From: an uncultured Anaerolineae bacterium
GTDB taxonomy: Bacteria; Chloroflexota; Anaerolineae; Fen-1058
NCBI GenBank assembly: GCA_964398185.1
Contig: CAYNML010000022.1
Span: 6,877 to 70,876, forward strand
Direction of reading: 5' to 3'
DNA: 64,000 nucleotides
Part shown: positions 1,214 through 62,745 of the stretch, in pieces
Position numbering within the stretch: the first letter of the stretch is position 1
How the letters are laid out: each line of letters starts with the position of its first letter
Position numbers and translations under genes: made by a program
The notes under the pieces: model-generated
Database searches by the model: none
Told to the model about the DNA's origin: nothing
What the model saw: the letters and a program-made list of their open reading frames with translations, nothing else

Positions 1214-1472
1214 GTCTTTTCCTTGCTTTGTGGAAGAAACCGGGGTTCTTCAGTCCGAATGGAACTGTGCGCTCGGTCAGAGAAACCCGGTTTCTGATTT
1301 TCATCGATTATAGCACGCGCGTTCGCGCCTCTCGCGCCAGGCGCACCATCTCTAATGGAACGCTAACAGTCCACATGCATCCATCTAACACGTTTCAGGT
1401 ATCCTGAGCGCAGTTCTGAGGAAAACATCAGACAACAAACTCAAATTTCAAAAAGGATTGGGGAGGTTTCAC

Positions 1473-1937
1473 ATGGCTCGCAATATGATTGTCCGCACGA
1501 ATGATCCGTTTTTCATGCCGTTGAGCGCCGCGGTGAATGCGCTGTTCAATGACGCGCAGGTCAGCCCGCGCGCGGCTGAATGGGCCACCGCCTGGGGCGT
1601 GGGTTCGCGCCTGCCGCTGAACATCTACGCCGATGCCGAGGGGTACACCTTTGTGGCGCTGGTGCCCGGTGTCAAGGCCGATGAGTTGAACATCGAGACG
1701 GAGGGCAACACCGTCAAGATCAGCGGCGAATTGATCGCGCCCGCGCTGTCGGCCGACGAGCACGTCCGCACGCTGCGCAGCGAGATCGGCTTTGGCAAGT
1801 TCAACCGCGCGTTTGAGATGCCGGAAGAGATCGACGCCGACAAGATCGAAGCGAACCTGGACAACGGCGTGTTGACCGTCCGCGTGCCCAAGGCCGAGGC
1901 TGTCAAGCCGCGCACGATCAAGGTGCAGGCGAAGTAA
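1473..1937 (+). CDS. Hsp20/alpha-crystallin family small heat-shock protein
   Basis: GGAGG 6 nt upstream of ATG 1473. Alpha-crystallin domain ends in GVLTVRVPK. The longer track ORF from 1458 lacks an RBS. Confidence 0.9.
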   Translation: MARNMIVRTNDPFFMPLSAAVNALFNDAQVSPRAAEWATAWGVGSRLPLNIYADAEGYTFVALVPGVKADELNIETEGNTVKISGELIAPALSADEHVRTLRSEIGFGKFNRAFEMPEEIDADKIEANLDNGVLTVRVPKAEAVKPRTIKVQAK

Positions 1938-1972
1938 GATTGACTGTTAGAAGTTAGCATGCAGAAGTGGAA

Positions 1973-2008
1973 GAGCCGCTCCGCTGTGAGGCGTGAGCGG
2001 CTTTTTGA
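1973..2008. terminator. Bidirectional rho-independent terminator between hsp20 and the convergent SARP gene
   Basis: Stem agccgctc...gagcggct followed by TTTTT. Confidence 0.55.
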
Positions 2009-2044
2009 TTGATGGCCAATCGGCTCAGCCAGGTTCGCCGGCGT

Positions 2045-5000
2045 TTAACTGTTACCGGATTCTGTAGTCAAGCTGAGCGCCAGCGCGATCGCTTTGTCCA
2101 GCGTTAGCGTCTGCCCATTTTCCCAGGCGGCCGCATAGGCGCTTGCGTCGAATTGCGCGCGCGCCCGATCGTGATAAGGCGCGAGTTGAGCGACTTCATC
2201 CGGCGACAACGGCGAACCGATCGCTTCCCGCCCAGCTTCGGCCGCTCCGAGGATGGTGATCGCCTCGACGTACCGGCCGCGAATGATCGCAACCTCGGCC
2301 AGCCCTTCGACGTTGGAAAGGATGCCAGACTTGTCGCCTTGCTCACGCGCCAGGGCAAGACTCTCTCGAAAAGCTGCGACTGCGCGCGCCGCGTCGTGTT
2401 GTTCCACCCACGCCAGGCCCAGGTTATTGAGTGACGAGGCGATCCCGCGCGCGGCGCCGATCTCGCGCTGCAGTTGCAAACTGCTTTCGTGCAGAGCGAC
2501 CGCTTGCGTATAATCCCCTTGCAGCCGCGCCACAATCCCGAGGCTGTTGAGCGCATTGGCTACGCTGGCCACGTCACCGATTTCGCGGTACAGCGTCAGG
2601 CTCTGCTCGTAAAACGCGTGCGCTTGCGCCAGGTCATTCTGATGGCGGGCCACATTGCCCAGATTTTGCAGCGAGTCGGCAATATCATGTGGATCGCGCA
2701 GCTTCTGCCGAATGGCCAAGCTCTCCTCAAATAATGCCCGGGCGCGCTGATAGTCACCTCGCCGTCGAGCGATAATGCCCAGGCTGTTCAGTCCCCGGGA
2801 AATGCCCCTTTGATCTCCCGACTCGCGCCACAAGGTCAAACTCTCTTCCAGCAACCTGCTGGCCTGTTCCAGATCACCTTGATCCCTGACGATCAGGCTC
2901 AGGCTATTCAGCGCCATCGCCACGCCCGGTTTGTTGCCCAACTCCCGCTGCAACGCGAGCGCCTGCTGCGCCAATGCAGCCGCGCGCGGCAAATCGGCCT
3001 GGGCGCGCGCCAGCCGACACGCGCCATCGATCAGTTCCGCCCGCACCGCCGTCGATAAGCCTGCGCCGTGCGTCAACACGCGCTCCAGCCACTGACGGCC
3101 TTCGGCATAATGGCCGCGCAAATGCCAGAAACGCTGCAGCGCCGCGCCGAGCCGCGCCGCACTTTCGATCTGCTGATGCTCCAGCGCCCACTGCAGCGCC
3201 GTGCGCAAGTTGTCATTCTCAACCTCAAGTTGCCGCAGCCAGCGCGCCTGCTCCTGGCCCAGCAGCTGCGCTTCGGCCTCGGCAGCGAGTTGCACAAACC
3301 ACGCCAGCTGCCGCTCTTGAGCGCGATCGATCTCGCCCGCTTCGATCAGCTTCTCGCGCCCGTATTGGAGCAGGAGTTCATGTAGATCGTAACGTCCATC
3401 GCCTTCGCGCTGCACCAGCGATTTGTCGATCAACGCCGCCAGCAACGCGGGGGTAGCGGCGGCGACATATTGCGCCGCTTCGATCTGAAAACCGCCGCGA
3501 AAAACGGCCAGGCCACGAAACGCCGCCCGTTCGTCGCTTGTGAGCAGCTGCCACGAATGCTCGAACACTGCCCACAGGCTGCGATGCCGCTCGGGGACAT
3601 CACGCAGCCGGGTCGAGAGCGCGCGCAAACTGCCGGCGATTTCGGCGGCGATGGCGTCGCACGACTGGGCGGTTACGGTGGCTGCCGCCAACTCGATCGC
3701 CAGCGGCAGCCCCTCGACCAGGCGGCAGATGCGGGCGATGGCGGCGGCGTTGTCCGCCGCGAGGTGAAACTTGCGCTGCACGCGCTGCGCCCGCTCGACG
3801 AAGAGCTGCACCGCCTGATACCGCGCCATGTCCGGGGCTGACTCAGCGAGAGGGTAATCAAGTCCACCGACTTCAAACACTTGCTCAACCTGCAGCGCCA
3901 ACCGCTCGCGCGAGGTGATCAACAGCGTAAGGCGCGGCGCTTGCTGAATCAAGCGAATGAGCAGCTCGACGCCGGTCAGCAGATGCTCCACATTGTCCAA
4001 CACTAGCAGCAGTTCGCGCGGCCGCAGATAGGCCATGAGCTGTTGTTCAGGATCGGTGTGTTTCTCCCGCGTCACACCCAACGCGGACAAGATCGTGGCT
4101 GGTAGAAGATCAGCGGAAGCAAGCGCGGCCAGCGAGACAAAGGCTGCACCATCCTCAAAGATCGGCGCATTGGCCGTTAAAGCCGCGAGAGCTAAGCGGG
4201 TCTTGCCGATGCCGCCCGGCCCGACGATCGTGATCAACCGCTGGGCGGGATCGGACAACAGATCGGTCAAATCCGCCAGTTCGGTCTCGCGTCCGATCAA
4301 TTTCGTCGTCGCGATCGGCAGCTCGATCGATCGGGTGAGGGCGGTATCCTCGATCGGTGCTCCCGCGCGAATCTGTTCGACCAGGTGCTGCGTGGCGGCG
4401 ATCGGTTCCACGTTGAATTGATCGGCCAGGATGCGGCGGCAGGCTTCATACTGCGCCAGCGCCGCGCCGCGCTGCCCGGCGCGATACAGCAGACGCATCA
4501 GGCGAGCGTGCGCCATTTCGTCCCACGGCTCCAGCTCGATCAACCGCGTCAGCAGTTCGCGCGCGCGCGCTGCAGCGCCCCAGCGTTCATGATACTGCGC
4601 CAGGTGCGTCAGCGCTTCCACCGCGCGTTGATGCAGCGCTTCACGTTTCAACACCAGCCATTCTTCAAAGGGCGCGCTGTCAACCGAGGGCAGCTGAGCC
4701 AGAAAGTCGCCGCGATACAACTGCGCTGCTTCTGCCAGGCGCGCGGCGCAGATTGGACAACGCGCGATGTGCCGATGACGATGTCGCGCGCACTCGTCCA
4801 GCAATGCCGTGAAGCGTGTCACGTCGAGGGTGTAATCGCTGGCGGGGTTCAACTGCACGGTATCGCGCGTGGTGATGAGAAACGGCGCGGCGGGATCACC
4901 GGGGCCGATCGTGTCCCGCAAGCTCGTCAAGACTTGCCGCAGGTTGGTGCGCGCCGCGGCATCGGGCATATCGGGCCACAATAGACCGACGATGGCATCC

Positions 5001-7589: not shown

Positions 7590-9767
7590 ATGTTCAACAG
7601 CAATCGATCGATACGTTGGTTATTCGTTGCAGCGCTTAGCGCGGCGGCGCTGTTGATCAGCTTCGCCTCGATCAATCGAGCGTCGGCGCAGGACGCCGGG
7701 CCGCAAGCGCCGCAAGCTGCGGCGGGATCATCTTTCACATACCAAGGCCGCCTGATCAAAAACGGCCAACCCATCAGCGATGTCTGCGCGCTGAGCTTCT
7801 CGCTGTATGATGCTGCATCCGGCGGCAGTTTCCTCAACAGCAACACCTTCAACACCGTGCCCATCAGCAACGGGCTGTTCACCGTGCAGCTCGATTACGG
7901 GTCTGCCACCTTCAACGGCGACGAGCGCTGGATCGAAACGGCGGTGAAATGCACGGGCGATGCGAACTACATCACACTCAGCCCGCGCACCAGGTTGACC
8001 GCCGCGCCGTATGCCATCTATGCGTTGAACAATTGGGCGCTGAACGGCAACAGCGGCACGGGCGGCAGCGGCTTCATGGGCACCACCGATAACACCGCGT
8101 TAACGATCGGCGTGAACGGCCAGGCCGCGCTGCGCCTCTATCCGCAGCCGCAAAGTCCCAACATCATCGGCGGCTACAGCGGCAACGCCATCTCGCCGAC
8201 GACCTACGGCCAGACTATTGCGGGCGGCGGCGCGTTCTTTTACGAGAATCGCACGCTTAACACCTATGCCACGGTGGGCGGCGGGCGCAAGAATCAATCC
8301 GATGGGTACGGCGCGACCATTGCAGGCGGCATCGATAACCGCGCGAGCAACGATTACGCGGTCGTGGCGGGCGGGCTGAATAATCAGGCCACGGGCAGCT
8401 CGTCGGCCATCGGCGGCGGCTTCTACAACGTGGCCGCCGGTTACGTGTCTTACGTCGGCGGCGGCGATCTCAACCTAGCCATGACGCAGAATGCCACTAT
8501 CGGCGGCGGGTACAGCAACACCATCACGGGTGGTCAGCTGATCGCCAACAACACCATCGGCGGCGGTGTGTTCAATTTCAACTCCGGCTTTGCGGCGACG
8601 ATCGCGGGCGGGCACGGCAATCAAGCGACGGGCGAATGGGCGTCGCTGGGCGGCGGCGGCTTCAACACCGCGTCGAATCGTAGCGCCACGGTCAGCGGCG
8701 GCGAATACAACAACGCAGGTGGAGCGCGCGCCACCATCGGCGGCGGCGCGTACAACGTGGCCGCCGGGAGTGGATCGACGATCGGGGGTGGCGGCTATAA
8801 CGGCAGCGGCATCTTCGGCGGCAATCGCGCCAGCGGCACCGCGTCCACCATCGGCGGCGGCTATGGCAACGTCACCAGCATCGATGCGGGCTATGGCGCC
8901 ATTGGCGGCGGACAGCAAAATCAGATCAGCGCCACGGTCGGTACCAATCTCAACATCGCCACTATCGGCGGCGGCTTCAACAACAAGATTTCGCTGGGTG
9001 GCGGAACGATCGCGGGCGGCAACAGTAACACGGCCAGCGGCTTCGACGCGACCGTGGGCGGTGGCATCAATAACACGGCCAGTGGCGGAGCCTCGGTGGT
9101 GCCTGGCGGCTCCAGCAACCTGGCGCAGGGCAACACCAGTTTCGCCGCGGGCTATCGCGCCAAGTCCTACAACAACGGCTGCTTCACGTGGGCCGACTCC
9201 AACGATTTCGATTACGGCTGCACGCTCAACAATGCGTTCACGGCGCGCGCCACGGGCGGTGTGTACTTCGTCACGGGCATTAACGGTTCCGGCGGAACCA
9301 CGGCGGGCGTCACGGTGCCGGCCGGCGGCAATGCGTGGTCGGCCCTCAGCGATCGTAACAGCAAGGCCAACTTCGCGGCGGTAGATCCGCGCGCGGTGGT
9401 GGAAAAACTCGCGCAGATGCCGATCAGCACGTGGAACTACAAGACGCAGGCTGCGAGCATTCGCCATATCGGTCCGATGGCCCAGGACTTTGCCGCAGCC
9501 TTTGGCGTGGGCGAAGATGATACGCACATCAGCACCATCGATGCGGATGGCGTCTCACTGGCCGCGATTCAGGGACTTTATCAACTCTCGCTGGAAAAGG
9601 ATCAGCAGATCGCGCAGTTGCAAACGCGACTTGAAGCGCTGGAGAATCATGCCAACCCGATCGGTTCGGCGAGACCCCCCGGATTGATCGGGTTCATTGC
9701 CGGCGCCATGATCGGCCTGGGCGCCTTCTGGTTGGGAACTCGTCGAACACAAGGTGGTGTGCGATGA
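7590..9767 (+). CDS. secreted fibre-like protein: signal peptide, Hep_Hag-like Gly-rich beta-helix repeats, C-terminal peptidase S74 intramolecular chaperone domain
   Basis: AAAGGAGGAG RBS before ATG 7590. Signal peptide ...INRASA/QD. About 30 repeats of the xIGGGxxNxAxG type. C-terminus SDRNSKANFAAVDP...WNYK...GPMAQDF matches the S74 auto-cleaving chaperone (SDxxxK Ser-Lys). Confidence 0.7.
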   Translation: MFNSNRSIRWLFVAALSAAALLISFASINRASAQDAGPQAPQAAAGSSFTYQGRLIKNGQPISDVCALSFSLYDAASGGSFLNSNTFNTVPISNGLFTVQLDYGSATFNGDERWIETAVKCTGDANYITLSPRTRLTAAPYAIYALNNWALNGNSGTGGSGFMGTTDNTALTIGVNGQAALRLYPQPQSPNIIGGYSGNAISPTTYGQTIAGGGAFFYENRTLNTYATVGGGRKNQSDGYGATIAGGIDNRASNDYAVVAGGLNNQATGSSSAIGGGFYNVAAGYVSYVGGGDLNLAMTQNATIGGGYSNTITGGQLIANNTIGGGVFNFNSGFAATIAGGHGNQATGEWASLGGGGFNTASNRSATVSGGEYNNAGGARATIGGGAYNVAAGSGSTIGGGGYNGSGIFGGNRASGTASTIGGGYGNVTSIDAGYGAIGGGQQNQISATVGTNLNIATIGGGFNNKISLGGGTIAGGNSNTASGFDATVGGGINNTASGGASVVPGGSSNLAQGNTSFAAGYRAKSYNNGCFTWADSNDFDYGCTLNNAFTARATGGVYFVTGINGSGGTTAGVTVPAGGNAWSALSDRNSKANFAAVDPRAVVEKLAQMPISTWNYKTQAASIRHIGPMAQDFAAAFGVGEDDTHISTIDADGVSLAAIQGLYQLSLEKDQQIAQLQTRLEALENHANPIGSARPPGLIGFIAGAMIGLGAFWLGTRRTQGGVR

Positions 9768-29424: not shown

Positions 29425-29847
29425 ATGGGCATTGCTCGCACCTCACCCCCAGCATCTGCCATTAAACCCTTCCGCGTGCGGCGCAGCACGCAGGTGGCGC
29501 CGGCCTCGTTTTACTGGTGGCCGATCACCGAAGCCAAGATCCGGCGCGCGGCGCAGAAACTGGTCGATGAATTACAGCCGGAGAAGATCATTCTCTTTGG
29601 GTCGTTCGCTTACGGCCATCCGACCATTGATAGCGACGTCGATCTGTTGATCGTCATGCGCAGCAAGGCCCGGCCAGTCGATCGAATCCGACAAGCTTCA
29701 GCCGTGCTTGATCCGCGGCCGTTCCCAGTAGACATCATTGTGCGGACGCCGGCTGAAATTGCGGAGCGGCTTCGCGTCAAAGACTGCTTTATCGAAGAAA
29801 TTGTAACCAAAGGCAAAGTGCTTTATGAGCGCTCATCCCAGCGTTGA
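29425..29847 (+). CDS. nucleotidyltransferase-domain protein (MNT-type antitoxin)
   Basis: GGAGG RBS then ATG 29425. GSFAYG...DSDVDLLIV nucleotidyltransferase motif. The longer track ORF overlaps pccB and lacks an RBS. Confidence 0.75.
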   Translation: MGIARTSPPASAIKPFRVRRSTQVAPASFYWWPITEAKIRRAAQKLVDELQPEKIILFGSFAYGHPTIDSDVDLLIVMRSKARPVDRIRQASAVLDPRPFPVDIIVRTPAEIAERLRVKDCFIEEIVTKGKVLYERSSQR

Positions 29848-30214
29848 GTGGATTGAAAAGGCTGAGGGCAATTACGACAGTGCGCGGGTTTTGATGCGCC
29901 AGCGCAAGCACCTCGTGCCTGACGTCGTGTGCAATCAGTGTCAGCAGTGTGCGGAGAAATATCTCAAGGCGCTGTTGGTCAGACACGGCTTGAGCTTTCC
30001 CAAAACACATGATCTAACCCAACTCAAAAACCTGATTAAATCAATTGACGCCGACATACTCCTGATCGCGCCTGCGCTAGAGACACTGAATCCATACGGC
30101 ATCGATGTGCGTTATCCAGGATTGCAGGCAACCGCTGGCGATGCGCGTGAGGCCGTCGTTGCGATGAAGGCGGTGCGCAAATTCGCGCGCGCCAAACTGG
30201 GTCTCAAGCCGTAA
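29825..30214 (+). CDS. HEPN-domain protein (toxin partner of the MNT)
   Basis: Overlaps the MNT gene by 23 nt. HEPN helices with R...H motif region (...FPKTHDLTQL). Confidence 0.7.
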   Translation: MSAHPSVEWIEKAEGNYDSARVLMRQRKHLVPDVVCNQCQQCAEKYLKALLVRHGLSFPKTHDLTQLKNLIKSIDADILLIAPALETLNPYGIDVRYPGLQATAGDAREAVVAMKAVRKFARAKLGLKP

Positions 30215-32277: not shown

Positions 32278-32565
32278 ATGCACGTCATCTCGCGTAAAGC
32301 CCTGCGCCAGTTCTGGGAACGATACCCGGACAGCAAGACCGCTGTGGCGCGCTGGTTCAAGATTGTGCAGCAGACTAAATTCAGCAACTTTGCCGAGCTG
32401 CGTGCCGCGTTTCCGACGGCAGACAAAGTGGATGATTGGATTGTCTTCAATATTGGCGGCAACAAGTATCGTTTGATCGCGTCGGTGCATTTTAATCGGG
32501 GCAAGGTCTATATCCGCCAAGTTTTGACGCACGCCGAGTATGATCGAGGAGCCTGGAAACAATGA
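32278..32565 (+). CDS. higB: type II toxin HigB (RelE/ParE superfamily)
   Basis: MHVISRKALRQFWERYPDSK...IASVHFNRGKVYIRQVLTHAEYD is the HigB pattern. Toxin-first gene order. Confidence 0.8.
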   Translation: MHVISRKALRQFWERYPDSKTAVARWFKIVQQTKFSNFAELRAAFPTADKVDDWIVFNIGGNKYRLIASVHFNRGKVYIRQVLTHAEYDRGAWKQ

Positions 32566-32963
32566 GCGCTATGCTGACCACCGATCTGAAAACTCATTGG
32601 CCGACCATCCGCCCGTTGCTGACCATCCGCAACGAGCGTGAATACGATCGCGCCGTCAAACTACTGAATGAGCTGCTGGACGAGATCGGCGCGAATGAAC
32701 GCCATCCGCTGTATAGTTTCATGGACACGCTGGGTACACTGATTGAAGCCTACGAAGAAGAGCATCATCCGGTCCCAGCCAGCAGTGGGGCAGAGATGCT
32801 GCGTTACTTTATGGAAGAGCATGGCCTGTCGCAATCTGATCTAGCCGAGATCGGCTCGCAAGGTGTCGTTTCGGAAGTGCTGAATGGCAAGCGCGAACTG
32901 AACGTCCGGCAGGTGCGGGCACTGGCGAAGCGTTTTCACGTATCACCGGCCGTGTTTATTTAA
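32562..32963 (+). CDS. higA: HigA antitoxin (XRE-family HTH)
   Basis: 4-nt overlap with higB. C-terminal HTH LSQSDLAEIGSQGVVSEVLNGKRELNVRQVRALAKRFHVS. Confidence 0.8.
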   Translation: MSAMLTTDLKTHWPTIRPLLTIRNEREYDRAVKLLNELLDEIGANERHPLYSFMDTLGTLIEAYEEEHHPVPASSGAEMLRYFMEEHGLSQSDLAEIGSQGVVSEVLNGKRELNVRQVRALAKRFHVSPAVFI

Positions 32964-34719: not shown

Positions 34720-34781
34720 AGCGTAAAACGTGAAACGTGAAGCGTAATCGGCCCATTACGTTTTACGCCTTACGTTTTACG
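34720..34781. repeat. hairpin repeat family D (CGTAAAACGTGAAACG ... CGTTTTACG)
   Basis: gcgtaaaacgtgaaacgtgaagcgtaatcggcccattacgttttacgccttacgttttacg. Related copies at 61375-61427 and 62689-62745. Confidence 0.7.
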
Positions 34782-34798: not shown

Positions 34799-35203
34799 AT
34801 GGCCGTTAAACGAATCGATCACATTGCGGTTGTTGTAGACGACATCGACGCTTCACTCGCTTTCTGGCGTGATGCGCTGGGGATGGACATGACGCACCTC
34901 GAAGAAGTGAAGGAGCAGGAATCCATCGTGGCGTTTCTGCCCACGGGCGGCAGCGAGGTGGAACTGGTGAAGCCGACGACCGAGACCAGCGGCGTCGCCA
35001 AGTACCTGGCCAAGCGCGGCCCCGGCATGCATCACATCTGCCTCGAAGTGGACAACCTCGAAGCGATGCTGGCCGACATGAAGGCCAAAGGCGTGAAGCT
35101 GATCAACGAGACGCCGACCCTCGGCGCGGGCGGGAAGAAGATCGCCTTCATTCATCCGTCCAGCGCGAACGGGGTGCTGGTGGAGTTGTATCAGGACGCG
35201 TGA
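34799..35203 (+). CDS. methylmalonyl-CoA epimerase (VOC/glyoxalase-fold)
   Basis: 134 aa. IDHIAVVVDDID...HHICLEVDN...LVELYQ. Context with PCC and MCM. Confidence 0.8.
   Translation: MAVKRIDHIAVVVDDIDASLAFWRDALGMDMTHLEEVKEQESIVAFLPTGGSEVELVKPTTETSGVAKYLAKRGPGMHHICLEVDNLEAMLADMKAKGVKLINETPTLGAGGKKIAFIHPSSANGVLVELYQDA
35120..35203. repeat. direct repeat DR-L: authentic 3' end of the epimerase gene (84 bp), duplicated at 36252-36335
   Basis: 80/84 identity with 36252-36335. Confidence 0.8.
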
Positions 35204-35251
35204 ACGAAGGATGAGGGCGCGCCAGGCGGCCCACCGCTGCTTTTTCGTTAC

Positions 35252-35281
35252 TTGACGCGAATTGTTAAGCGGCGCTATACT
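35252..35281 (+). promoter_or_regulatory. sigma70-like promoter TTGACG-N18-TATACT for the MNT/HepT cassette
   Basis: Hexamers read directly. About 100 bp upstream of ATG 35380. Confidence 0.5.
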
Positions 35282-35379
35282 TAATTTCAGGCACAGTCCA
35301 TCGGTGAGTTGGCTTCGATTCCCACATCGAAACCTGAGTCCATGATTCATGGATCAAGATCAAGAGCGAGCAGCTGATC

Positions 35380-35742
35380 ATGTCCTGGACAGCCGAAGAA
35401 ATGCACATCTATCAAAAGACGGCGCTAAAACGCCACCAAGCCGCCAGACAGCAGGTGGCACAGCGCCGCGCACGGGCGTGGGAATTGGCACGGCAAGCGG
35501 CCGAGCGCCTGAAGACCGAGTTCGGCGTCGAGCGGGTGATGGCCTTTGGCTCATTGATACACGCCGATCGATTTACGGAATGGTCAGACGTCGATCTGGC
35601 AGTGTGGGGGCTGACCAATCACAATTGGTTACGGGCCTCAGCGGCGGTGGGCTACGGTGACATTGAAATCAACCTGGTTGATGTGCAGAGCTGCCAACCG
35701 GAGTTACTGGCCAGCATTGAGCGCGAAGGAGTGCCGCTATGA
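35380..35742 (+). CDS. nucleotidyltransferase (MNT-type) antitoxin
   Basis: MAFGSLIHADRFTEWSDVDLAVWG nucleotidyltransferase motif. Confidence 0.75.
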   Translation: MSWTAEEMHIYQKTALKRHQAARQQVAQRRARAWELARQAAERLKTEFGVERVMAFGSLIHADRFTEWSDVDLAVWGLTNHNWLRASAAVGYGDIEINLVDVQSCQPELLASIEREGVPL

Positions 35743-36239
35743 TTCCGCGTTATCGCTTGTTGGCGGCTCGCATTCGAGCCGAGTTGCCAACGTTGGAGCG
35801 CAGCGTCGCGCAAACCGAGGGCGCCTTATTGCGCGCCGAACGGCAACCGGCTGATCAATCTTACTTTGTCGCGGCGGTGGCCTTCGAACTACACAGTTTT
35901 TACGCCGGTCTGGAGCGCCTGTTTGAATTGATTGGCAGCGACGTCGAACAAAGCCGCCCCTCCGGCGCGGCGTGGCATCGTAACCTGCTGACGCAAATGG
36001 CGCTGCCCATCACTGACGTGCGCCCCGCCGTCATACAGACCGAGACACAGACTGCTCTATTGGAATATCTGGAATTTCGACATGTGGTGCGGCACATGTA
36101 CACGTTCAATCTGCGGATCGATCGCGTCACCGAGTTGGGGCGGAGCTTACGTCCGGCCTTTGATCTGGCCCGCCGTGATTTGTTGCGGTTCGCAGAATTC
36201 CTCGATGGGTTAGCGACCGCCGATGAGGCTGGCCTGTAA
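35739..36239 (+). CDS. HepT-like (DUF86/HEPN) RNase toxin
   Basis: 4-nt overlap with the MNT gene. R-X4-H-X-Y motif in FRHVVRHMY. Confidence 0.7.
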   Translation: MIPRYRLLAARIRAELPTLERSVAQTEGALLRAERQPADQSYFVAAVAFELHSFYAGLERLFELIGSDVEQSRPSGAAWHRNLLTQMALPITDVRPAVIQTETQTALLEYLEFRHVVRHMYTFNLRIDRVTELGRSLRPAFDLARRDLLRFAEFLDGLATADEAGL

Positions 36240-36251
36240 AGCACACGGTCA

Positions 36252-36335
36252 CTCGGCGCGGGCGGGAAGTAGATCGCGTTCATTCATCCGTCCAGCGCGA
36301 ACGGGGTGCTGGTGGAGTTGTATCAGAACGCTTGA
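36252..36335. repeat. direct repeat DR-R: decayed copy of the epimerase 3' end (contains an in-frame TAG)
   Basis: Four mismatches relative to 35120-35203, including AAG to TAG. Confidence 0.8.
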
Positions 36336-36508
36336 GAATCAGCGAGTCAGCGAATCAGCGAAGGGGAGAGGTTCCCTTTCGCTGATTTTTGTTTTGCTTT
36401 GCGACTCCAGACCGACATTGCCCATGTGCAGCAATTTCACACTGCCAAGAGGTTGAAAGTATAATAATTGCACTCGCTTTGAGCCTTTCGAAAAGGTGAT
36501 GGTTATTC

Positions 36509-37621
36509 ATGTCTACAGATCATTTCTTCGATGAAACCACTGAGCAGTCAACTGTTAAAACCGCGATAGTGTCGAAGTACTTTTGGGCTTGGGCAAAGGT
36601 AATAATGCCGACAGCCAAGAAAGGTCCTGGAAGAATTGCCTACATTGACTTGTTTGCTGGACCCGGTCGCTACAAGGACGGAACAAAATCCACGCCTGTA
36701 CTCATTTTGGAGAAGGCGATACAAGATGCGGATATGCGCCGAATGCTTGTTACGATGTTTAATGACAAAGACGAAGATAACTCACGTTCATTAGAGAAAG
36801 CAATCCGCGAGTTGCCGGGAATTGAAACACTAAAGCACCGGCCTCAAATCAGCACACAGGAAGTCGGTACTGAGCTCGTCAAAATGTTTGAGCGGATGCG
36901 GTTAGTGCCGACCCTGTTCTTTGTTGATCCTTGGGGATACAAGGGTCTGTCGCTTCGGTTGGTCAACTCGGTGTTAAAGGATTGGGGCTGTGACTGCATC
37001 TTTTTCTTTAACTACAATCGCATCAGCATGGGACTCAATAACGATCTGGTGCGCGAACACATGAATGCATTGTTTGGGCAGAAGCGCGCGGATGAATTGC
37101 GGTTAAGAATGGAGCCGCTTCAGCCACACGAACGTGAGCTGGTCATCGTGGAAGAAATCTGTCAAGCACTGAAAGAAATGGGCGGTGCATATGTCTTGCC
37201 GTTTCGCTTCAGGAACTATCTCGGCAGTAGAACAAGTCATCACTTGATATTTGTCAGCAAGCATCCCAAGGGCTACGAAATCATGAAAGAGATTATGGCC
37301 CAACTAAGTTCTTCTAGCGAGCAAGGAGTGCCCTCTTTTGAATATAGCCCTGCGGATAAGCGACAGCCGTTGTTGTTTGAATTGTCCCGCCCGTTGGACG
37401 ATTTGGAGGAAATGCTCGTCTCAGATTTCGCAGGTAAAACGTTGACGATGCAGCAGATCTACGAAAGTCATAACGTCGGTAGACCGTATATCAAACGGAA
37501 TTATAAAGATGTATTGATGAAGTTGGAGGCAAGTGGTACGATTAAAGTAGAACCGCATCGTAAAGGTACTTTTGGCGACAATGTCGTTGTCACATTTCCA
37601 CAAAAACGCGGGGGCAAGTAG
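36509..37621 (+). CDS. tcmP: TcmP-like (three-Cys-motif partner protein) family protein
   Basis: 370 aa. TATAAT and AAAAGGTGA upstream. Motifs DLFAGPGRY and [10 protein letters not shown]. Immediately followed by a three-Cys Gp37/Gp68-family gene, the defining context I recall for the TcmP family. Confidence 0.65.
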
Positions 37622-37623
37622 AA

Positions 37624-38355
37624 GTGGCCACCAAATCCAGCATCGAATGGACTGAATCCACCTGGAATCCATTAACGGGCTGCACCAAGATCAGCCCGGG
37701 CTGCAAGCATTGTTATGCTGAACGCATGGCAAAACGTCTACGCGCCATGGGCCAGCCCAACTACGCCAACGGCTTCAAGTTGACGCTGCATCCGCAAGCG
37801 CTGGAAATTCCGCTGGGCTGGAAGAAGCCGCAGATGATCTTCGTCAACTCCATGAGCGATCTCTTCCACAAAGATGTGCCGGTGGACTTCATTCAGCAAG
37901 TCTTTGATGTGATGCGCCGCGCCGACTGGCACCGGTTTCAAGTTCTCACCAAACGCGCTGAACGCTTGCTTGAAATCGACCCGCAAATTGAGTGGCCGTC
38001 CAACGTGTGGATGGGGGTCAGCGTCGAGAATCAGGACTACAAGTATCGCATCGAGTTGCTGCGGCAGACTCACGCCAAGATCAAGTTCCTCTCGCTGGAA
38101 CCGCTGTTGGGGCCACTGCCTCGCTTGAACTTGAAGGGCATCAACTGGGTCATCGTCGGGGGTGAATCGGGGCCGGGCGCACGGCCTTTGCGGGAAGAAT
38201 GGGTAATCGACATTCGCGATCAATGCAAAGCAAGGCACGTGCCGTTCTTCTTCAAGCAATGGGGCGGCGTGCAAAAGAAACGGGCCGGGCGATTGCTGCA
38301 AGGGGAAATCTACAGCCAGATGCCCGAACAAGATTGGATCGGCGCAACAGCTTGA
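37624..38355 (+). CDS. three-Cys-motif protein, phage Gp37/Gp68 (DUF5131) family
   Basis: 243 aa. N-terminus [20 protein letters not shown] (C-X6-C-X2-C). C-terminus [13 protein letters not shown]...FFFKQWGG. Confidence 0.7.
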
Positions 38356-38541
38356 ACTGCTGATTATCTTTTCTGTTTCGGATCAATAAGCGAGCGAATC
38401 GTGCTGACGATTCGCTCGCTCGTTGATTCATTGATTCGCTGATTTTGACTTCCCCTGTGGTACAATCGCTCCACTCAACTTGCCGCGAATCCTCCCGGAG
38501 GTTCTAAACCTCCGGGAGGCTCCAGGTCTTCAGGTGATTCA

Positions 38542-41403
38542 ATGGATTTGCTGCACGGACTCAATCCCCAGCAGGCGCGGGCAGTGGAAGCGCCCGACGG
38601 GCCGGTGCTGGTTCTCGCCGGACCCGGCTCGGGCAAGACACGCGTGCTCACACATCGCGTGGCGTATCTGGTCGAGGTGCGCAAGGTCTGGCCGCGCCAG
38701 ATCCTGGCGGTGACGTTTACGAACAAGGCCGCGCGCGAGATGCGCGAACGGCTCGCTAAGATCCTCGGCCCAACCCGATCGGGTGAGCTGACCCTCGGCA
38801 CGTTCCACGCCATCTGCGCGCGCTGGCTGCGCCGCGATGCGCCCGAGATTGGCCTGAGCCGCGACTTTGTGATCTTCGACGAGGACGATCAGCAGCAGGT
38901 GGTCAAGCGCGTGCTGGCCGAGTTGAACATCGACGACAAGAAGTACAAGCCCTCGGCGGTGCTCAACGCGATCTCGAATGCGAAAAACGAACTGATCACG
39001 CCCGACATCTATCAGCCTCCGACGTACTGGCACGAGATGATCCGCCGCATCTATCCGCGCTATCAGGAACTGCTGCGCCAGAGCAACGGCCTGGACTTCG
39101 ACGATCTGCTGCTGGAAGTGGTGCGCCTGTTCGATGCGCGCCCTGACATTCTATCGCGCTATCAGGATCGCTACCAGCACATCCTCGTCGACGAATTTCA
39201 AGATACCAACACGGTGCAGTATGCGTTGATCAGTCGCCTAGCGGCGAAGTCGCATAACATCTTCTGCGTGGGGGATGAAGATCAATGTTTGCCAGCGGGT
39301 ACGCTGGTGCAAACGCCCGATGGCGTAAAGCCGATTGAGCGTATTCGAGTAGGTGAGCAGGTCATTGCCGCCAGCGGCGCAGGTGATGTGCAGGCCGCAT
39401 TGGTCACCCATGTGGATAGCCGAGACTACGCTGGATACGCTGTTCGGCTGAAGACGCGCGACGGTTATGCAGTTTGCGCTACGCCCAATCATGTCATGTT
39501 TGCGCGAACCGCGACAGCCGCAAATGAATTGCGGCCTGCTAGGGAAAACAGGCTGAAGCCTGTTGCGGCGGCGGCGTCTGCGTCTGAAATCCGTTTTAAC
39601 GGATTTGATCCTATCAGACGCCGAATTCATTCGGCGGGCTTGCGCTCCTCCATGCTGCTGGACGAGAACGCAGCGAATGGCCAAGCGCTTGAAGTTGCGT
39701 GCGGCCCCTATTTGTGCGATTTTACCGATCAAATTCCAGCCCGGCGTTTCGAGCTGCTCCCCTTAAGCCATTTGCGCACCTCAATGCGCGTGGCTGTTTT
39801 TTACGAAGGGCAGATCGTGGAAGACGAAGTTGCCGAAGTTCAGTGGGAGCACTACCGCGGCAAGGTCTATGACCTTGAAGTAGCCGATGTGCATAACTAC
39901 CTGGCTGGAGGCGTCGTCGTTCATAACTCAATTTACAAGTGGCGCGGCGCGGACTTCCGCAACATCCAGCGTTTCCGCGAGCACAACCCCGGCCTGACGC
40001 AGATCGTCCTCGAAGAGAATTACCGCTCGACGCAGACCATCCTCGATGCGGCGCGCGGCGTGATCGACAAGAACACCCAACGGACGCGCAAGAACCTCTT
40101 CACGCAGCGCTCGGGTGGCACGGCGATCAGCGTCTACGAAGCTTACAATCAGGACGACGAAGCGCAGTACGTCGTCGATACGATTCAGCAGTTGATCAAA
40201 AAGCAGCAGTACAAGCTCTCCGATTTTGCCGTGTTCTATCGCACCAACGCCCAGTCCCGCGCGATTGAAGATACGTTCGTGCGGATGGGCGTGCCGTATC
40301 GGCTGGTGGGCGGCGTGCGCTTCTATTCGCGCCGAGAAATCAAGGACGTGCTGGCGTATCTGCGGCTGGTGCACAATCCGCACGACGCGGTGAGTCTGGC
40401 GCGCGTGATCAACGTGCCCGCGCGCGGCATCGGCGTCAAGACGCTGGAGGTGCTCGACGAAGCGTCACGCCGCAGCGGCCACTCGCCGTATCAACTCATT
40501 CACGACGCACCCAATCTCGATCAGGCCGTGCCGGGTCTCACAACGAAAGCCAGGCAGGCGCTGCTCGGCTTTGCGCAGTTGATCGATCGCTGGATCGATT
40601 CGCCGCAGCGGGCGCGCAGCGTGGCCGAGTTGATGGATCTCGTCCTGCGCGATTCCGGCTACTTCAAGCACGTCAACGACGGCACCGACGAAGGCCGCGA
40701 TCGCTGGGACAACATCAAGGAACTGCGCAACGTCGCCGCCGATTACACACAGGCGCTGGGCGACGATCCGCTGGCGCACTTCCTCGAAGATGTGGCGTTG
40801 GTGGCCGATGTCGATTCGCTGAAGGATCAGGTCGATGCGCCGGTGCTGATGACGCTGCACGCCGCAAAAGGGCTGGAATTCCCGATCGTTTTCATCACCG
40901 GCATGGAAGAAGGGCTGCTGCCGCACTCGCGTTCGCTGGAAGATCCCGAAGAGATGGCCGAGGAGCGCCGCCTGTGTTACGTGGGCATCACGCGCGCCAA
41001 AGATCGCGTCTTCCTGTCGTATGCCTTCCGCCGCACCATGTGGGGCAGCAGCGATGTCAGCACGCCGTCGCGTTTCTTGAGCGACATTCCCAAAGCGCTG
41101 GTCAGCGGATCGGCTTCGTTTGCCGATGTGCGACCGCGCGAGGCCGCCGCGATTCGTGCTTCGACGTGGGAGACGCCGTCCGGCGCGGCCGCCGGGGCCA
41201 AGCCCGCCCGATCGGTTGCCGCACCCTCGCGCGCTTTGCAGTTCCGCGCGGGGCAGCGCGTGAAACACGCCCAGTTCGGCGAAGGCATCGTGATCGAAAG
41301 CAAGCTCGATCGCAACGACGAAGAAGTGACGGTGGCCTTCAAGAAGGCCGGCATCAAGCGTCTGCTGGCGAGCTTTGCGAACTTGCAGAAATTACCTGGC
41401 TAA
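38542..41403 (+). CDS. pcrA: ATP-dependent DNA helicase PcrA/UvrD (SF1), interrupted by an in-frame intein (exteins 38542-39285 and 39928-41403)
   Basis: Motif I GPGSGKT, II HILVDEFQDTN, III VGDEDQ / SIYKWRGAD split by a 214-aa insert. The C-terminal Tudor-like domain is present. Confidence 0.9.
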   Translation: MDLLHGLNPQQARAVEAPDGPVLVLAGPGSGKTRVLTHRVAYLVEVRKVWPRQILAVTFTNKAAREMRERLAKILGPTRSGELTLGTFHAICARWLRRDAPEIGLSRDFVIFDEDDQQQVVKRVLAELNIDDKKYKPSAVLNAISNAKNELITPDIYQPPTYWHEMIRRIYPRYQELLRQSNGLDFDDLLLEVVRLFDARPDILSRYQDRYQHILVDEFQDTNTVQYALISRLAAKSHNIFCVGDEDQCLPAGTLVQTPDGVKPIERIRVGEQVIAASGAGDVQAALVTHVDSRDYAGYAVRLKTRDGYAVCATPNHVMFARTATAANELRPARENRLKPVAAAASASEIRFNGFDPIRRRIHSAGLRSSMLLDENAANGQALEVACGPYLCDFTDQIPARRFELLPLSHLRTSMRVAVFYEGQIVEDEVAEVQWEHYRGKVYDLEVADVHNYLAGGVVVHNSIYKWRGADFRNIQRFREHNPGLTQIVLEENYRSTQTILDAARGVIDKNTQRTRKNLFTQRSGGTAISVYEAYNQDDEAQYVVDTIQQLIKKQQYKLSDFAVFYRTNAQSRAIEDTFVRMGVPYRLVGGVRFYSRREIKDVLAYLRLVHNPHDAVSLARVINVPARGIGVKTLEVLDEASRRSGHSPYQLIHDAPNLDQAVPGLTTKARQALLGFAQLIDRWIDSPQRARSVAELMDLVLRDSGYFKHVNDGTDEGRDRWDNIKELRNVAADYTQALGDDPLAHFLEDVALVADVDSLKDQVDAPVLMTLHAAKGLEFPIVFITGMEEGLLPHSRSLEDPEEMAEERRLCYVGITRAKDRVFLSYAFRRTMWGSSDVSTPSRFLSDIPKALVSGSASFADVRPREAAAIRASTWETPSGAAAGAKPARSVAAPSRALQFRAGQRVKHAQFGEGIVIESKLDRNDEEVTVAFKKAGIKRLLASFANLQKLPG
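39286..39927 (+). mobile_element. mini-intein (214 aa) inserted in helicase motif III of PcrA
   Basis: Begins CLPAGTLVQTPDG (block A). Block B CATPNHVMF (TxxH). Ends VYDLEVADVHNYLAGGVVVHN followed by extein Ser. No LAGLIDADG/HNH endonuclease blocks seen. Confidence 0.8.
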
Positions 41404-62678: not shown

Positions 62679-62688
62679 AGTTTGCTCC

Positions 62689-62745
62689 GTAAAGCGTGAA
62701 ACGTGAAACGTAAAAGCGCCATTACGTTTTACGCCTTACGTTTTA
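62689..62745. repeat. hairpin repeat family D copy 3
   Basis: gtaaagcgtgaaacgtgaaacgtaaaagcgccattacgttttacgccttacgttttag. Confidence 0.7.

Follow-up and report, generated by a model that had tools for sequence, protein, structure and literature searches.

Integrative elements target the 3' ends of tRNA, tmRNA, and protein genes and bring a replacement end with them, and CIMEs are integrase-less derivatives of such elements. In chromosomal integrons, toxin-antitoxin cassettes are thought to stabilize arrays that would otherwise be prone to deletion. Toxin-antitoxin systems are classed as type VII when the antitoxin neutralizes the toxin by AMPylating it and the toxin cleaves RNA; we take NCBIfam NF047752 and Pfam PF20797 and PF18765 to be the families that represent HepT and MntA of this type. 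How chromosomal toxin-antitoxin systems move without a transposase or integrase is still poorly explained.

Restriction-modification systems offer a precedent. Their insertions are bounded by repeats of 30 to >100 bases, which often extend across the start or stop of a gene without disrupting it (PMC2853133, PMC3874152). The criteria for such an "insertion with long target duplication" are those of Nobusato et al. 2000 (Gene 259:99) and Furuta, Abe & Kobayashi 2010 (PMC2853133), reviewed in PMC3874152. In Rhs, CDI, and T6SS effector-immunity loci, C-terminal ends are displaced and orphan arrays form, which has been ascribed to illegitimate recombination facilitated by homology (Kirchberger et al. 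2017, PMC5361080, with Jackson et al. 2009 cited in that paper). Literature searches for gene-end or long target duplications at toxin-antitoxin cassettes yielded only this restriction-modification precedent and the displacement arrays in other systems.

Here, we describe a locus in which an MNT/HepT cassette lies between two copies of the end of a methylmalonyl-CoA epimerase gene. The locus is part of the window, by which we mean the whole 64-kb stretch of DNA that was analyzed. Its value lies in a clean footprint, exact empty sites, a second diverged lineage, and like footprints around related cassettes elsewhere.

A presumed toxin-antitoxin pair lies between two copies of an epimerase gene end

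The features of the locus are as follows.

34799-35203, + strand: intact methylmalonyl-CoA epimerase gene (134 aa), ending in the 84 bases of repeat copy 1
35120-35203, + strand: repeat copy 1, functional replacement 3' end of the epimerase gene, up to the TGA stop
35204-35219, + strand: 16 bases, ACGAAGGATGAGGGCG, with the sequence of the epimerase 3' flank that is native to other strains ("type A")
35219/35220: left junction J1, at the end of the 16-base type A flank
35220-35379, + strand: cassette leader, with a weak terminator-like hairpin at 35224-35242 and a promoter at 35252-35281
35380-35742, + strand: MNT-type minimal nucleotidyltransferase, 120 aa, presumed antitoxin; Polbeta, motif GS..DVD
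35739-36239, + strand: HepT-like HEPN protein, 166 aa, presumed toxin; HepT-like_2, 4-base overlap with MNT
36240-36251, + strand: 12-base cassette tail, AGCACACGGTCA, homologous to the sequence that follows HepT in L094 and L095
36251/36252: right junction J2, GGTCA/CTCGGCG
36252-36335, + strand: repeat copy 2, the displaced, dead epimerase 3' end, with an in-frame TAG at 36270-36272
36336-36395, + strand: native "type G" 3' flank and terminator of the epimerase operon, with GAATCAGCG repeats and a hairpin at 36352-36388

The epimerase open reading frame scored 149.5 bits against TIGR03081 (cut-off, 115), also matched Glyoxalase_4, and is 96 to 99% identical to its counterparts in relatives. 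Comparison of the window with itself revealed that the last 84 bases of the gene recur as a gapless direct repeat in which 80 of 84 positions are identical (35120-35203 versus 36252-36335), including a 48-base stretch of perfect identity. The chance expectation for such a pair is ~1e-27 per 64 kb, and it is the sole repeat of this quality in the window. Both copies open with a CTC codon, and the identity between them stops exactly at the epimerase stop codon, which is also the limit of conservation between strains. Four positions differ between copy 1 and copy 2: A at 35138 against T at 36270, which changes AAG to TAG in frame; C at 35146 against G at 36278 (repeat position 27, GCC versus GCG); G at 35195 against A at 36327 (repeat position 76); and G at 35200 against T at 36332 (repeat position 81).

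The insertion totals 1,132 bases, with the MNT/HepT cassette occupying ~1.05 kb of it, and MNT and HepT are its only genes. A putative promoter, TTGACG-N18-TATACT, is located at 35252-35281. MNT scored 27.7 bits against Pfam Polbeta (PF18765), just over the cut-off of 26.9, and HepT scored 101.4 bits against Pfam HepT-like_2 (PF20797; cut-off, 27). The HepT translation contains RHVVRHMY, a match to the Rx4HxY motif that marks HEPN toxins. Like type VII HepT/MntA pairs, the pair in the window has MNT ahead of HepT with a 4-base overlap, and it carries the GS..DxD and Rx4HxY motifs. Unlike those pairs, its MNT reaches only 27.1 bits against NCBIfam MntA, under the cut-off of 60, and its HepT belongs to HepT-like_2 and not to the classical DUF86 group. 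We presume from these features that the cassette encodes a type VII-like toxin-antitoxin pair.

A preliminary description of this locus had reported the 84-bp duplication with its four mismatches, the AAG-to-TAG change that would make the downstream copy a dead remnant, and, between the copies, a promoter and overlapping MNT and HepT (R-X4-H-X-Y) genes. All of these observations stand, with the identity of the two copies above 90%.

Repeats can lead assemblers astray, and the window was assembled from a metagenome; the second copy could in principle be an assembly chimera or else what remains of a second epimerase paralog. The same sequence, however, runs across the locus in contigs from three samples (L001, L002, and L004), so that both junctions are present in independent samples and assemblers, and they are present again in the diverged lineage L176. 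The Logan contig L004 has both of its ends exactly at the k=31 limits from copy-specific variants, as reasoned from the contig ends. On this evidence, the structure is not an assembly artifact. As for paralogy, no second epimerase or longer fragment was present in any relative examined, including the full second paralog that the preliminary description had named as the alternative, and the remnant begins abruptly 12 bases after the HepT stop. We consider both variants of this explanation extremely unlikely. For annotation purposes, 36252-36335 is to be flagged as a pseudogene fragment.

Relatives carry empty sites and two types of native flank

The relatives with empty sites are contigs of the Thermoflexales (Chloroflexota). 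L178 has the GAATCAGCG-repeat terminator, which occupies 36336-36395 in the window, immediately after its epimerase stop codon, and L178 positions 4292-4444 match window positions 36253-36395 at 89.5%. In L177, L179, and L016, the epimerase gene leads straight to uvrD. A single epimerase gene end is found in each of these four and in L014, with an identical flank type in L178. These single-copy empty sites in relatives indicate that the cassette is an insertion. The sites in L178, L177, L179, and L016 further indicate that the downstream copy, together with the terminator, is the displaced original gene end and that the upstream copy now completes the epimerase gene.

The native sequence after the epimerase stop comes in two types, with type A in L014, L015, L017, and L053 and type G in L178, L177, and L179. 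Sequence of the type G flank (36336-36395) was also found downstream of the epimerase gene in L014, L015, L017, and L019. In the window, type A sequence (16 bases) comes after copy 1 and type G sequence after copy 2. These 16 bases (ACGAAGGATGAGGGCG) are identical in L017, match at 15 of 16 positions in L014, L015, and L053, and constitute the sole match of 35204-35379 outside the same strain (L001 to L004). The occurrence of type A after copy 1 and type G after copy 2 indicates that the inserted DNA starts with part of the epimerase 3' flank of another strain. At repeat position 27, each of the two states is found in some of the relatives.

An old insertion that has been maintained

L176, a second lineage that is ~5% diverged, has the same junctions as the window and intact genes. 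Identity between the two is uniform at ~95% over the epimerase gene, leader (94.4%), MNT, and HepT, and dS is 0.11 to 0.18, with dN/dS values of 0.37 for MNT and 0.21 for HepT. Because L176 shares the junctions and has intact genes (dN/dS of 0.2 to 0.4), the insertion is old and has been maintained under purifying selection.

L176 also puts the differences between the copies in order. The codon in its copy 2 is still AAG, and the TAG therefore arose later in the window lineage. Repeat position 27 differs between the copies in the window and L176 alike, making it an ancestral difference, and at positions 76 and 81 (GAC GCG) the derived state, relative to L176 and L014, is that of copy 1 in the window. 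Of the four differences, only the TAG represents decay of the remnant; the one at position 27 is ancestral, and those at 76 and 81 arose in the functional copy. The same comparison shows that the two copies were nearly identical at their origin, with position 27 as the sole difference. Before this comparison, three of the differences seemed to prove that copy 1 had recently been imported from another allele. L176 overturned this in part: with positions 76 and 81 changed in the window's own functional copy, the argument for import is cut to the flank types and position 27. A sliding comparison of the mutase-epimerase region with relatives, in search of a recombination breakpoint, was uninformative because intergenic sequence aligned poorly.

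Signatures of dedicated mobility systems

The preliminary description had read the duplicated gene end as the footprint of a site-specific integrating element, as at tRNA/tmRNA-type att sites. The insert would then be a small, nonautonomous, CIME- or satellite-like element with the epimerase 3' end as its att site and the repeats as attL and attR, the tyrosine or serine recombinase having acted in trans or been lost. Much of the architecture fits. As with integrative elements and CIMEs, direct repeats that resemble attL and attR bound the window element, the gene is restored, and its original end, with the terminator, has been moved downstream. The 48-base perfectly identical stretch in the repeat and the identical junctions in the window and L176 would also suit an att site, and tandem gene-end copies at the cassette locus L131, described below, resemble accretion at one. 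The identity of the junctions in L176 is, however, explained by common descent, given the uniform ~5% divergence.

Other evidence runs counter to a site-specific element. Precomputed Pfam annotation contained no integrase, recombinase, or intI within ~6 kb on either side, and Pfam scans of the open reading frames that fill the same slot in relatives gave no recombinase match. Unlike an integrative element, the window element consists of two toxin-antitoxin genes and a promoter only. Its closest cassette homologs, L094 and L095, share only 35361-36251; they lack any epimerase fragment, and the leader before 35361 has no homology to either. Nor does the family carry a constant att fragment: its members are flanked by pieces of sortase, VWA, TIR, and ClpB genes, a gene 5' start and an internal segment among them, where a cassette-borne att would predict otherwise. 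The left edges of the repeat vary among the L131 copies, and the 16 bases of native flank after copy 1 in the window point to the chromosome of a related strain and not to the attP of an element. We therefore regard site-specific integration as quite improbable, and this part of the preliminary description was not supported. Its other proposals fared better. It had predicted an empty site at which the terminator directly follows the epimerase gene (as in L178, with the gene running on to uvrD in L177, L179, and L016), and it had viewed the upstream copy as a replacement gene end, which the empty sites and the terminator behind copy 2 bear out. Its views that the insertion is old (shared with L176 at ~95% identity), that no integrase remains (none within ~6 kb), that the epimerase 3' end is a recurrent hotspot, and that MNT/HepT pairs might be flanked by unrelated gene-end duplications elsewhere (as in L131, L172, L149, and L099) were likewise upheld.

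Features of other mobile systems were also sought. No terminal inverted repeats of the kind found in transposons or MITEs were detected, the best terminal inverted match being 6 bases (E=1), and the duplication, at 84 bases, is not short. Small promoter-bearing toxin-antitoxin cassettes in repeat-separated arrays are likewise found in chromosomal integrons (a comparison drawn partly from PMC5361080). Unlike integron cassettes, the window has no attC-like site and no intI nearby, and its repeats are fragments of host coding sequence. With just 12 bases between the HepT stop and the repeat, and no inverted-repeat arm in them, there is no room for an attC. Searches of viral contigs and plasmids found no relatives of the insert.

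Duplicated gene ends at other cassettes

In several other genomes, too, related MNT/HepT cassettes lie between duplicated termini of unrelated genes. In L131, the 3' end of a VWA gene is present four times, and the copies separate a 229-aa open reading frame, a HigBA pair, and an MNT/HepT pair. A 29-base indel is common to two of the four copies, and the left edges of the copies differ by 10 to 25 bases. A sortase gene 3' end is duplicated over 67 bases in L172, a TIR gene 5' start over 192 bases in L149, and a ClpB 3' end in L099; in L165, a 375-base duplication lies within a gene, without restoring that gene. In the window and L131, the stop codon is exactly where the repeat ends; in L172, the repeat runs 6 bases beyond it. 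Repeat lengths around HepT loci cluster at ~60 bases or more, as would be expected if RecA needs a minimum length of homology.

In four cases, the repeat starts no more than 20 bases from the HepT stop (12 in the window, ~12 in L131, 0 to 6 in L149, and 20 in L172). This spacing is a hint that the cassette has a defined end, and it would not be expected from illegitimate joining that is purely random.

A first count had placed target duplications around at least 10 of 80 HepT loci, from which several were removed on inspection. L133 proved to contain paralogous DUF86 genes, L110 a duplicated HicB-like gene, and L166 a terminator. L158, L139, L161, L163, L174, and L144 were rejected as multicopy noncoding repeats; these repeats are heptamer-repeat hairpins or possibly attC-like sites. 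As background, 412 kb of epimerase loci contained one independent repeat pair of the kind sought. Rough Fisher tests for enrichment, with a small and nonmatched control, gave p values of ~0.001 to 0.005; per locus, the strict class was not significantly different from background (p=0.10), and only the rough per-gene comparison was significant.

Homology-assisted insertion as a proposed explanation

We tentatively explain the window locus as an "insertion with long target duplication" that was assisted by homology and needed no integrase, an account whose likelihood we place a little short of even. As in the restriction-modification cases, a small addiction-type unit without a mobility gene is bounded by long, variable direct repeats that occur as a single copy at the related empty site, and the target gene is kept intact. 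The repeat is longer than 30 bases, an empty site exists, and the insert is below 20 kb and free of mobile-element genes. Unlike in those cases, the cargo is an MNT/HepT-like pair and not a restriction-modification system. The toxin of such a HEPN/MNT pair is of the RNase type and does not cleave DNA, so DNA breakage by a restriction enzyme cannot apply here as the cause. Two further differences are that the copies in the window have different types of native flank, which points to recombination with a related strain, and that the gene end in L131 is present four times and forms a cassette array.

In homology-assisted insertion, the donor would have been a related strain that already had the cassette 16 bases downstream of its epimerase stop. 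Donor DNA would have paired with the recipient through the conserved epimerase gene end and may have integrated by a Campbell-type single crossover of a circularized piece, or else by homologous crossing over at one end combined with an illegitimate join (GGTCA/CTCGGCG) at the other. The last 84 bases of the epimerase gene would thereby have been doubled, the upstream copy keeping the gene intact and the downstream copy becoming a remnant. Both gene-end copies could then be used as portable homology arms for transfer between strains. Cells that lost the cassette by recombination between the repeats would be selected against through post-segregational killing by the cassette. Such selection by addictive cargo would explain why unstable repeat-flanked inserts persist mainly around toxin-antitoxin cargo.

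The arrays of Rhs, CDI, and T6SS loci resemble this process in that homology-anchored incoming DNA brings a gene end and cargo and pushes the old end downstream, with repetition giving rise to arrays such as that in L131. They differ in that their displaced ends are functional, variable toxin domains with immunity genes, whereas the end displaced in the window is that of a housekeeping gene, has the same function as its replacement, and accompanies an unrelated toxin-antitoxin pair. Against the homology-assisted account, the textbook outcome of homology-facilitated illegitimate recombination is an insertion with a deletion and not with a duplication (PMC5361080 and general knowledge).

The duplication could also have arisen locally and in one step, if a staggered double-strand break or a microhomology-mediated replicative template switch captured a linear cassette. 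Fill-in of 84- to 100-base overhangs would produce the two copies, and later allelic replacement would make their flanks differ. This would suit the near identity of the copies at their origin, where L176 leaves only position 27 different, as well as the variable repeat lengths elsewhere (67 to 375 bases) and the duplication within a gene that was not restored in L165. A breakage-based mechanism has been proposed for the restriction-modification cases by Furuta et al. (PMC2853133), and the mosaic 3' ends make it evident that homologous recombination is frequent among these strains. A local event, however, needs an additional one to place type A after copy 1 and type G after copy 2, and it leaves unexplained both the end of the repeat exactly at the stop codon (window and L131) and the lower length limit near 60 bases. 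Moreover, the breakage rationale is not transferable from restriction-modification systems to an RNase-type toxin that does not cleave DNA (general knowledge of HEPN toxins). We judge a one-step local origin to be unlikely.

If homology-assisted insertion is extended from the window to the wider family, toxin-antitoxin cassettes might spread without a recombinase as "homology-armed" units, each with a host-gene terminus of 60 to 400 bases. RecA would insert such a unit and the gene would be restored, repeated insertion would build arrays as in L131, and the addictiveness of the cargo would retain the inserts. We offer this generalization as possible but doubtful; were it true, long target duplication would mark addiction modules in general, whether or not their cargo cleaves DNA. 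Should the pattern hold in a matched survey, Kobayashi's "insertion with long target duplication" would extend to toxin-antitoxin systems, which would argue for a mechanism rooted in host recombination and in selection for addictive cargo rather than in any cutting of DNA by that cargo. The doubled end of a neighboring gene would then serve as a simple signature with which to date and trace toxin-antitoxin acquisitions.

The gap between the epimerase gene and uvrD is a hotspot

Among relatives, the gap between the epimerase gene and uvrD has at least seven different contents and is a hotspot. Two further toxin-antitoxin insertions are found in the same operon of the window, at 29425-30214 and 32278-32963; gene-end duplications were looked for at both, and none was clear. 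A core propionate-pathway operon tolerates three toxin-antitoxin insertions. At the hotspot itself, an esterase gene in L005 lies between two copies of 159 bases from the uvrD 5' region, and L020 has a chimeric junction of uvrD 5' and epimerase 3' sequence, followed by a PIN-type toxin-antitoxin pair.

A toxin-antitoxin cassette lies between two copies of an epimerase gene end

At the 3' end of the methylmalonyl-CoA epimerase gene, every element listed in the preliminary description was found where that description had placed it.

34799-35203: methylmalonyl-CoA epimerase gene (TIGR03081, 149.5 bits against a cut-off of 115)
35120-35203: copy 1, the final 28 codons with stop of the epimerase gene
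35224-35242: weak terminator-like hairpin, between the copies
35252-35281: promoter TTGACG-N18-TATACT, between the copies
35380-35742: MNT-type nucleotidyltransferase gene (presumed antitoxin), between the copies
35739-36239: HepT-like_2 HEPN gene (presumed toxin), between the copies, with a 4-base overlap with MNT
36252-36335: copy 2, without the gene's first 321 bases and with an in-frame AAG to TAG change at 36270-36272
36352-36388: strong hairpin terminator, 3' of copy 2

The two copies align without gaps and are identical at 80 of 84 positions, a repeat pair with a chance expectation of ~1e-27; no second repeat of comparable quality was found in the 64-kb window. Contigs of three samples (L001, L002, and L004) carry the identical sequence, and a JGI metagenome contig (Ga0394876_0000217) contains the window sequence in the opposite orientation. 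The Logan contig L004, of 1144 bases, runs from repeat position 46 in copy 1 to repeat position 57 in copy 2. Its two limits coincide exactly with the first and the last 31-mer to contain a copy-specific variant (position 76 and position 27, respectively), indicating that an independent assembler recovered both junctions with the same variants. An assembly artefact is ruled out by these limits and the three-sample recurrence.

Relatives retain a single-copy site

Close relatives were gathered by a metagenome scan with the epimerase, exact-protein look-ups, and blastn; one epimerase, 96% identical to that of the window, carries the NCBI source name Thermoflexales bacterium (Chloroflexota). An empty site, predicted to have the epimerase followed directly by the terminator, was found in the relative L178, where GAATCAGCG repeats and the same hairpin lie directly 3' of the epimerase stop codon (L178 4292-4444 against window 36253-36395, 89.5% match). 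In three further relatives (L177, L179, and L016), the epimerase is followed by one hairpin and then uvrD, and L177 has an insertion-free operon of carboxyltransferase, biotin carboxylase, BCCP, mutase, epimerase, uvrD without intein, and YacP. No second epimerase or longer epimerase fragment was found among the relatives examined. Together with the single-copy empty sites, this identifies copy 2 and the terminator as the original gene end, now displaced. On this sequence comparison, the insertion is 1132 bases long, and the gene is now completed by its copy 1.

The left junction follows an epimerase flank native to other strains

The closest homologues of the cassette (L094 and L095; HepT 86% identical) are located after an unrelated gene and lack the epimerase fragment, and their DNA homology to the window is confined to 35361-36251. 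The 12-base tail between the HepT stop and copy 2 (AGCACACGGTCA) has its homologue in the post-HepT sequence of both loci, which places the right junction, GGTCA/CTCGGCG, at 36251/36252. On the left, the 16 bases 3' of the copy 1 stop (ACGAAGGATGAGGGCG) are identical to the native epimerase 3' flank of the relative L017 and match that of L014, L015, and L053 at 15/16; this stretch is the sole match of 35204-35379 outside the window's own strain (L001-L004). Two native post-stop flank types occur in relatives, type A (ACGAAGGATGA...) and type G (GAATCAGCG...). The window has both: 16 bases of type A come after copy 1, and type G comes after copy 2. No terminal inverted repeats of the insert were found.

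The insertion is older than ~5% divergence

A cluster look-up identified L176, a 201-kb sister-sample contig whose first bases lie within the epimerase; it matches window 34983-36331 at 94.7% identity, with the same architecture and both junctions. Identity is even by segment (epimerase, 94.9%; leader between left junction and MNT, 94.4%; MNT, 94.7%; HepT, 95.4%), so the insertion must predate the ~5% divergence of the two. L014, whose distance from the window is similar to that of L176, does not carry it. Comparison of the window with L176 gives a dS of 0.11-0.18 and dN/dS values of 0.37 (MNT) and 0.21 (HepT); by these ratios, both genes are under purifying selection.

The four differences between the copies can be polarized with L176, which overturned the idea that copy 1 is a recent import. 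The TAG is limited to copy 2 of the window (the L176 codon is AAG), and the changes at positions 76 and 81 took place in the functional copy of the window. Position 27 (copy 1, GCC; copy 2, GCG) differs between the copies in the window and in L176 alike, and relatives are polymorphic for the two states. In L176, divergence of the remnant sets in at about position 74 and a GH6 glycoside hydrolase gene comes next, indicating that the site was rearranged again there.

The segment 36146-36325 (~95 bases at the end of HepT, the 12-base tail, and the remnant's first 73 bases) differs from L176 at 4 of 180 positions. The dead remnant accounts for 1 difference in 73, against ~5.5 per 100 elsewhere (dS ~0.12); ~9 would be expected of a neutral pseudogene (P ~0.0015), and against overall divergence P is 0.10. 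Constraint, gene conversion, or more recent exchange could explain this low divergence.

Gene fragments flank related cassettes in other genomes

A HepT-like_2 alignment scan with one genome per GTDB species yielded 80 loci, in which sequences upstream and downstream of each cassette were compared. Direct repeats no shorter than 50 bases and no less than 85% identical, with a spacing of 0.5-3.5 kb, occur in 14 of the 80, compared with one independent case in 412 kb of epimerase-centered background loci (Fisher p=1.8e-4). Inspection parted true analogues from look-alikes, and the former bear out the prediction that related cassettes would be flanked by gene-end duplications.

Duplicated fragments at HepT-like_2 loci of other genomes
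L172: 67-base sortase gene 3' end, to 6 bases beyond the stop; second copy 20 bases past the HepT stop
L131, 363-3652: last ~130 bases of a VWA-domain gene, four copies between three cassettes
L149: 192 bases, 5' start of a TIR gene
L165: 375 bases, internal to what we take from its translation to be a wecB-like UDP-GlcNAc 2-epimerase gene
L099: 81 bases, ClpB 3' end, around neighboring genes
L126: 53-base fragments, presumably carbamoyltransferase-like as judged by eye, around several toxin-antitoxin pairs

The L131 cassettes comprise a 229-aa ORF without family match, a HigBA pair (minus strand), and an MNT/HepT pair. Left edges of its repeat copies lie 10-25 bases apart, a 29-base insertion is present in copies 3 and 4 but not in copies 1 and 2, and positions 2528-2598 hold a partial fifth piece. 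The strict class amounts to 4-5 of the 80 cassettes against one per ~350 background genes, a rough comparison (p ~0.001-0.005); the per-locus test gives p=0.10.

Rejected as target duplications were repeats consisting of paralogous DUF86 or HicB genes (L133 and L110), multi-copy non-coding sequence (L158, L139, L161, L163, L174, and L144), or a terminator (L166). Some of these cassettes (L158, L161, and L163) form arrays with conserved non-coding repeats of 58-130 bases between them. In L158 (2358-2432, 3511-3568, and 4323-4397), the palindrome ACGGCCGT marks the bounds of the unit, which starts with a ...TAAC motif. The array repeats may represent attC-like sites, either of a chromosomal integron or of a CALIN.

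A homology-assisted route is tentatively favored

The window data match the "insertion with long target duplication" of restriction-modification systems, in which long, variable repeats occur without mobility genes, the empty site is single-copy, and the repeats often span start or stop while leaving the target gene intact (PMC2853133; PMC3874152). They also resemble Rhs and T6SS displacement arrays, attributed to homology-anchored illegitimate recombination (PMC5361080). While long target duplication itself is known, the toxin-antitoxin cargo and array formation are new here.

The preliminary description had interpreted the locus as an old, integrase-type insertion at a recurrent hotspot. Footprint, age, hotspot, and cross-genome prediction stand; the integrase mechanism is not supported, and we consider it less likely than a recombinase-free one. 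A site-specific recombinase acting in trans is improbable: no integrase was found within ~6 kb on either side, the host-gene fragments vary with no constant att fragment, and the repeat edges are variable. Our leading, though tentative, choice is homology-assisted insertion, because the inserted DNA starts with another strain's epimerase flank, repeat identity stops where between-strain conservation stops, the copies differ at a site polymorphic among relatives, and repeat lengths remain above ~60 bases. A one-step duplication by staggered break or template switch, with flank replacement at a later time, is a less likely possibility. By analogy with established addiction-module behavior, the cassette's addictiveness would guard the repeat-flanked insert against loop-out deletion.

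The epimerase-uvrD gap is a recurrent insertion site

Consistent with the proposed hotspot, gap contents differ among relatives with an epimerase at least 84% identical, and similar footprints occur in L005 and L020.

Contents of the epimerase-uvrD gap
L016, L177, L179: empty
Window, L014, L017: divergent TcmP partners and a conserved DUF5131 gene (DUF5131 also in L178)
L005: 502-aa protein and esterase
L053: alpha/beta hydrolase
L020: PIN-type toxin-antitoxin pair
L018, L176: other genes

In L005, a 159-base direct repeat (8164-8322 and 9375-9533, 87% identity) surrounds an Esterase_PHB gene and comprises the uvrD promoter region and uvrD's first 29 bases; the upstream copy reads CTG in place of ATG. 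This footprint is the mirror image of the window's, at the opposite edge of the hotspot, and its cargo is not toxin-antitoxin. In L020 (1016-1160), uvrD's first 36 bases run into a diverged fragment of the epimerase 3' end, which has a type-A-like flank; next comes a PIN and AF2212-like toxin-antitoxin pair (1259-2025, minus strand). Such a join would be the expected product of a circularized or tandemly duplicated "slot"; the contig ends before the rest of the locus.

The TcmP (TIGR04474, 227 bits) and DUF5131 islet (window 36509-38355; L014 2094-3693; L017 4188-6356) is bracketed in the window by an inverted repeat (36337-36361 and 38420-38444) and is wholly absent from L016, L177, and L179. 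GC content of the TcmP gene is ~0.46, against ~0.59 around it. Relatives keep the DUF5131 gene at 87-90% nucleotide identity, partnered with TcmP-family proteins (261 and 448 aa) that are very divergent.

Other features of the window

Two more toxin-antitoxin pairs occupy gaps of the propionyl-CoA carboxylase/methylmalonyl-CoA operon (29425-30214 and 32278-32963): an NTP_transf_2 and HEPN pair between the carboxyltransferase and biotin carboxylase genes, and a HigB and HTH_3 pair between the BCCP and mutase genes. Neither pair is present in L005, L013, or L177, and no clear gene-end duplication was seen at either site.

Tandemly repeated units of 7-8 bases (ACGTGAA/ACGTAAA or AATCAGCG) make up intergenic hairpins at 34722-34781, 36337-36388, 38382-38444, and 62688-62745. 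One of them, the mutase-epimerase hairpin, has a second copy at 62688-62745 (90% identity) and thus looks like a dispersed REP-like terminator element. Unit-repeat hairpins also occur in other Chloroflexota loci (L139 and L161), where they are a source of false "flanking repeat" matches.

The UvrD/PcrA helicase gene (38542-41403) contains an intein (Pfam Intein_splicing/Hint; insert ~39285-39927) that is also present in L005 and absent from L177, L178, and L179, whose blast alignment skips 39285-39927; the L177 uvrD product is 735 aa. Finally, about ten degenerate, GGCGGCGG-rich repeats of 45-50 bases at 8382-9121 look like part of a glycine-rich repeat protein gene.
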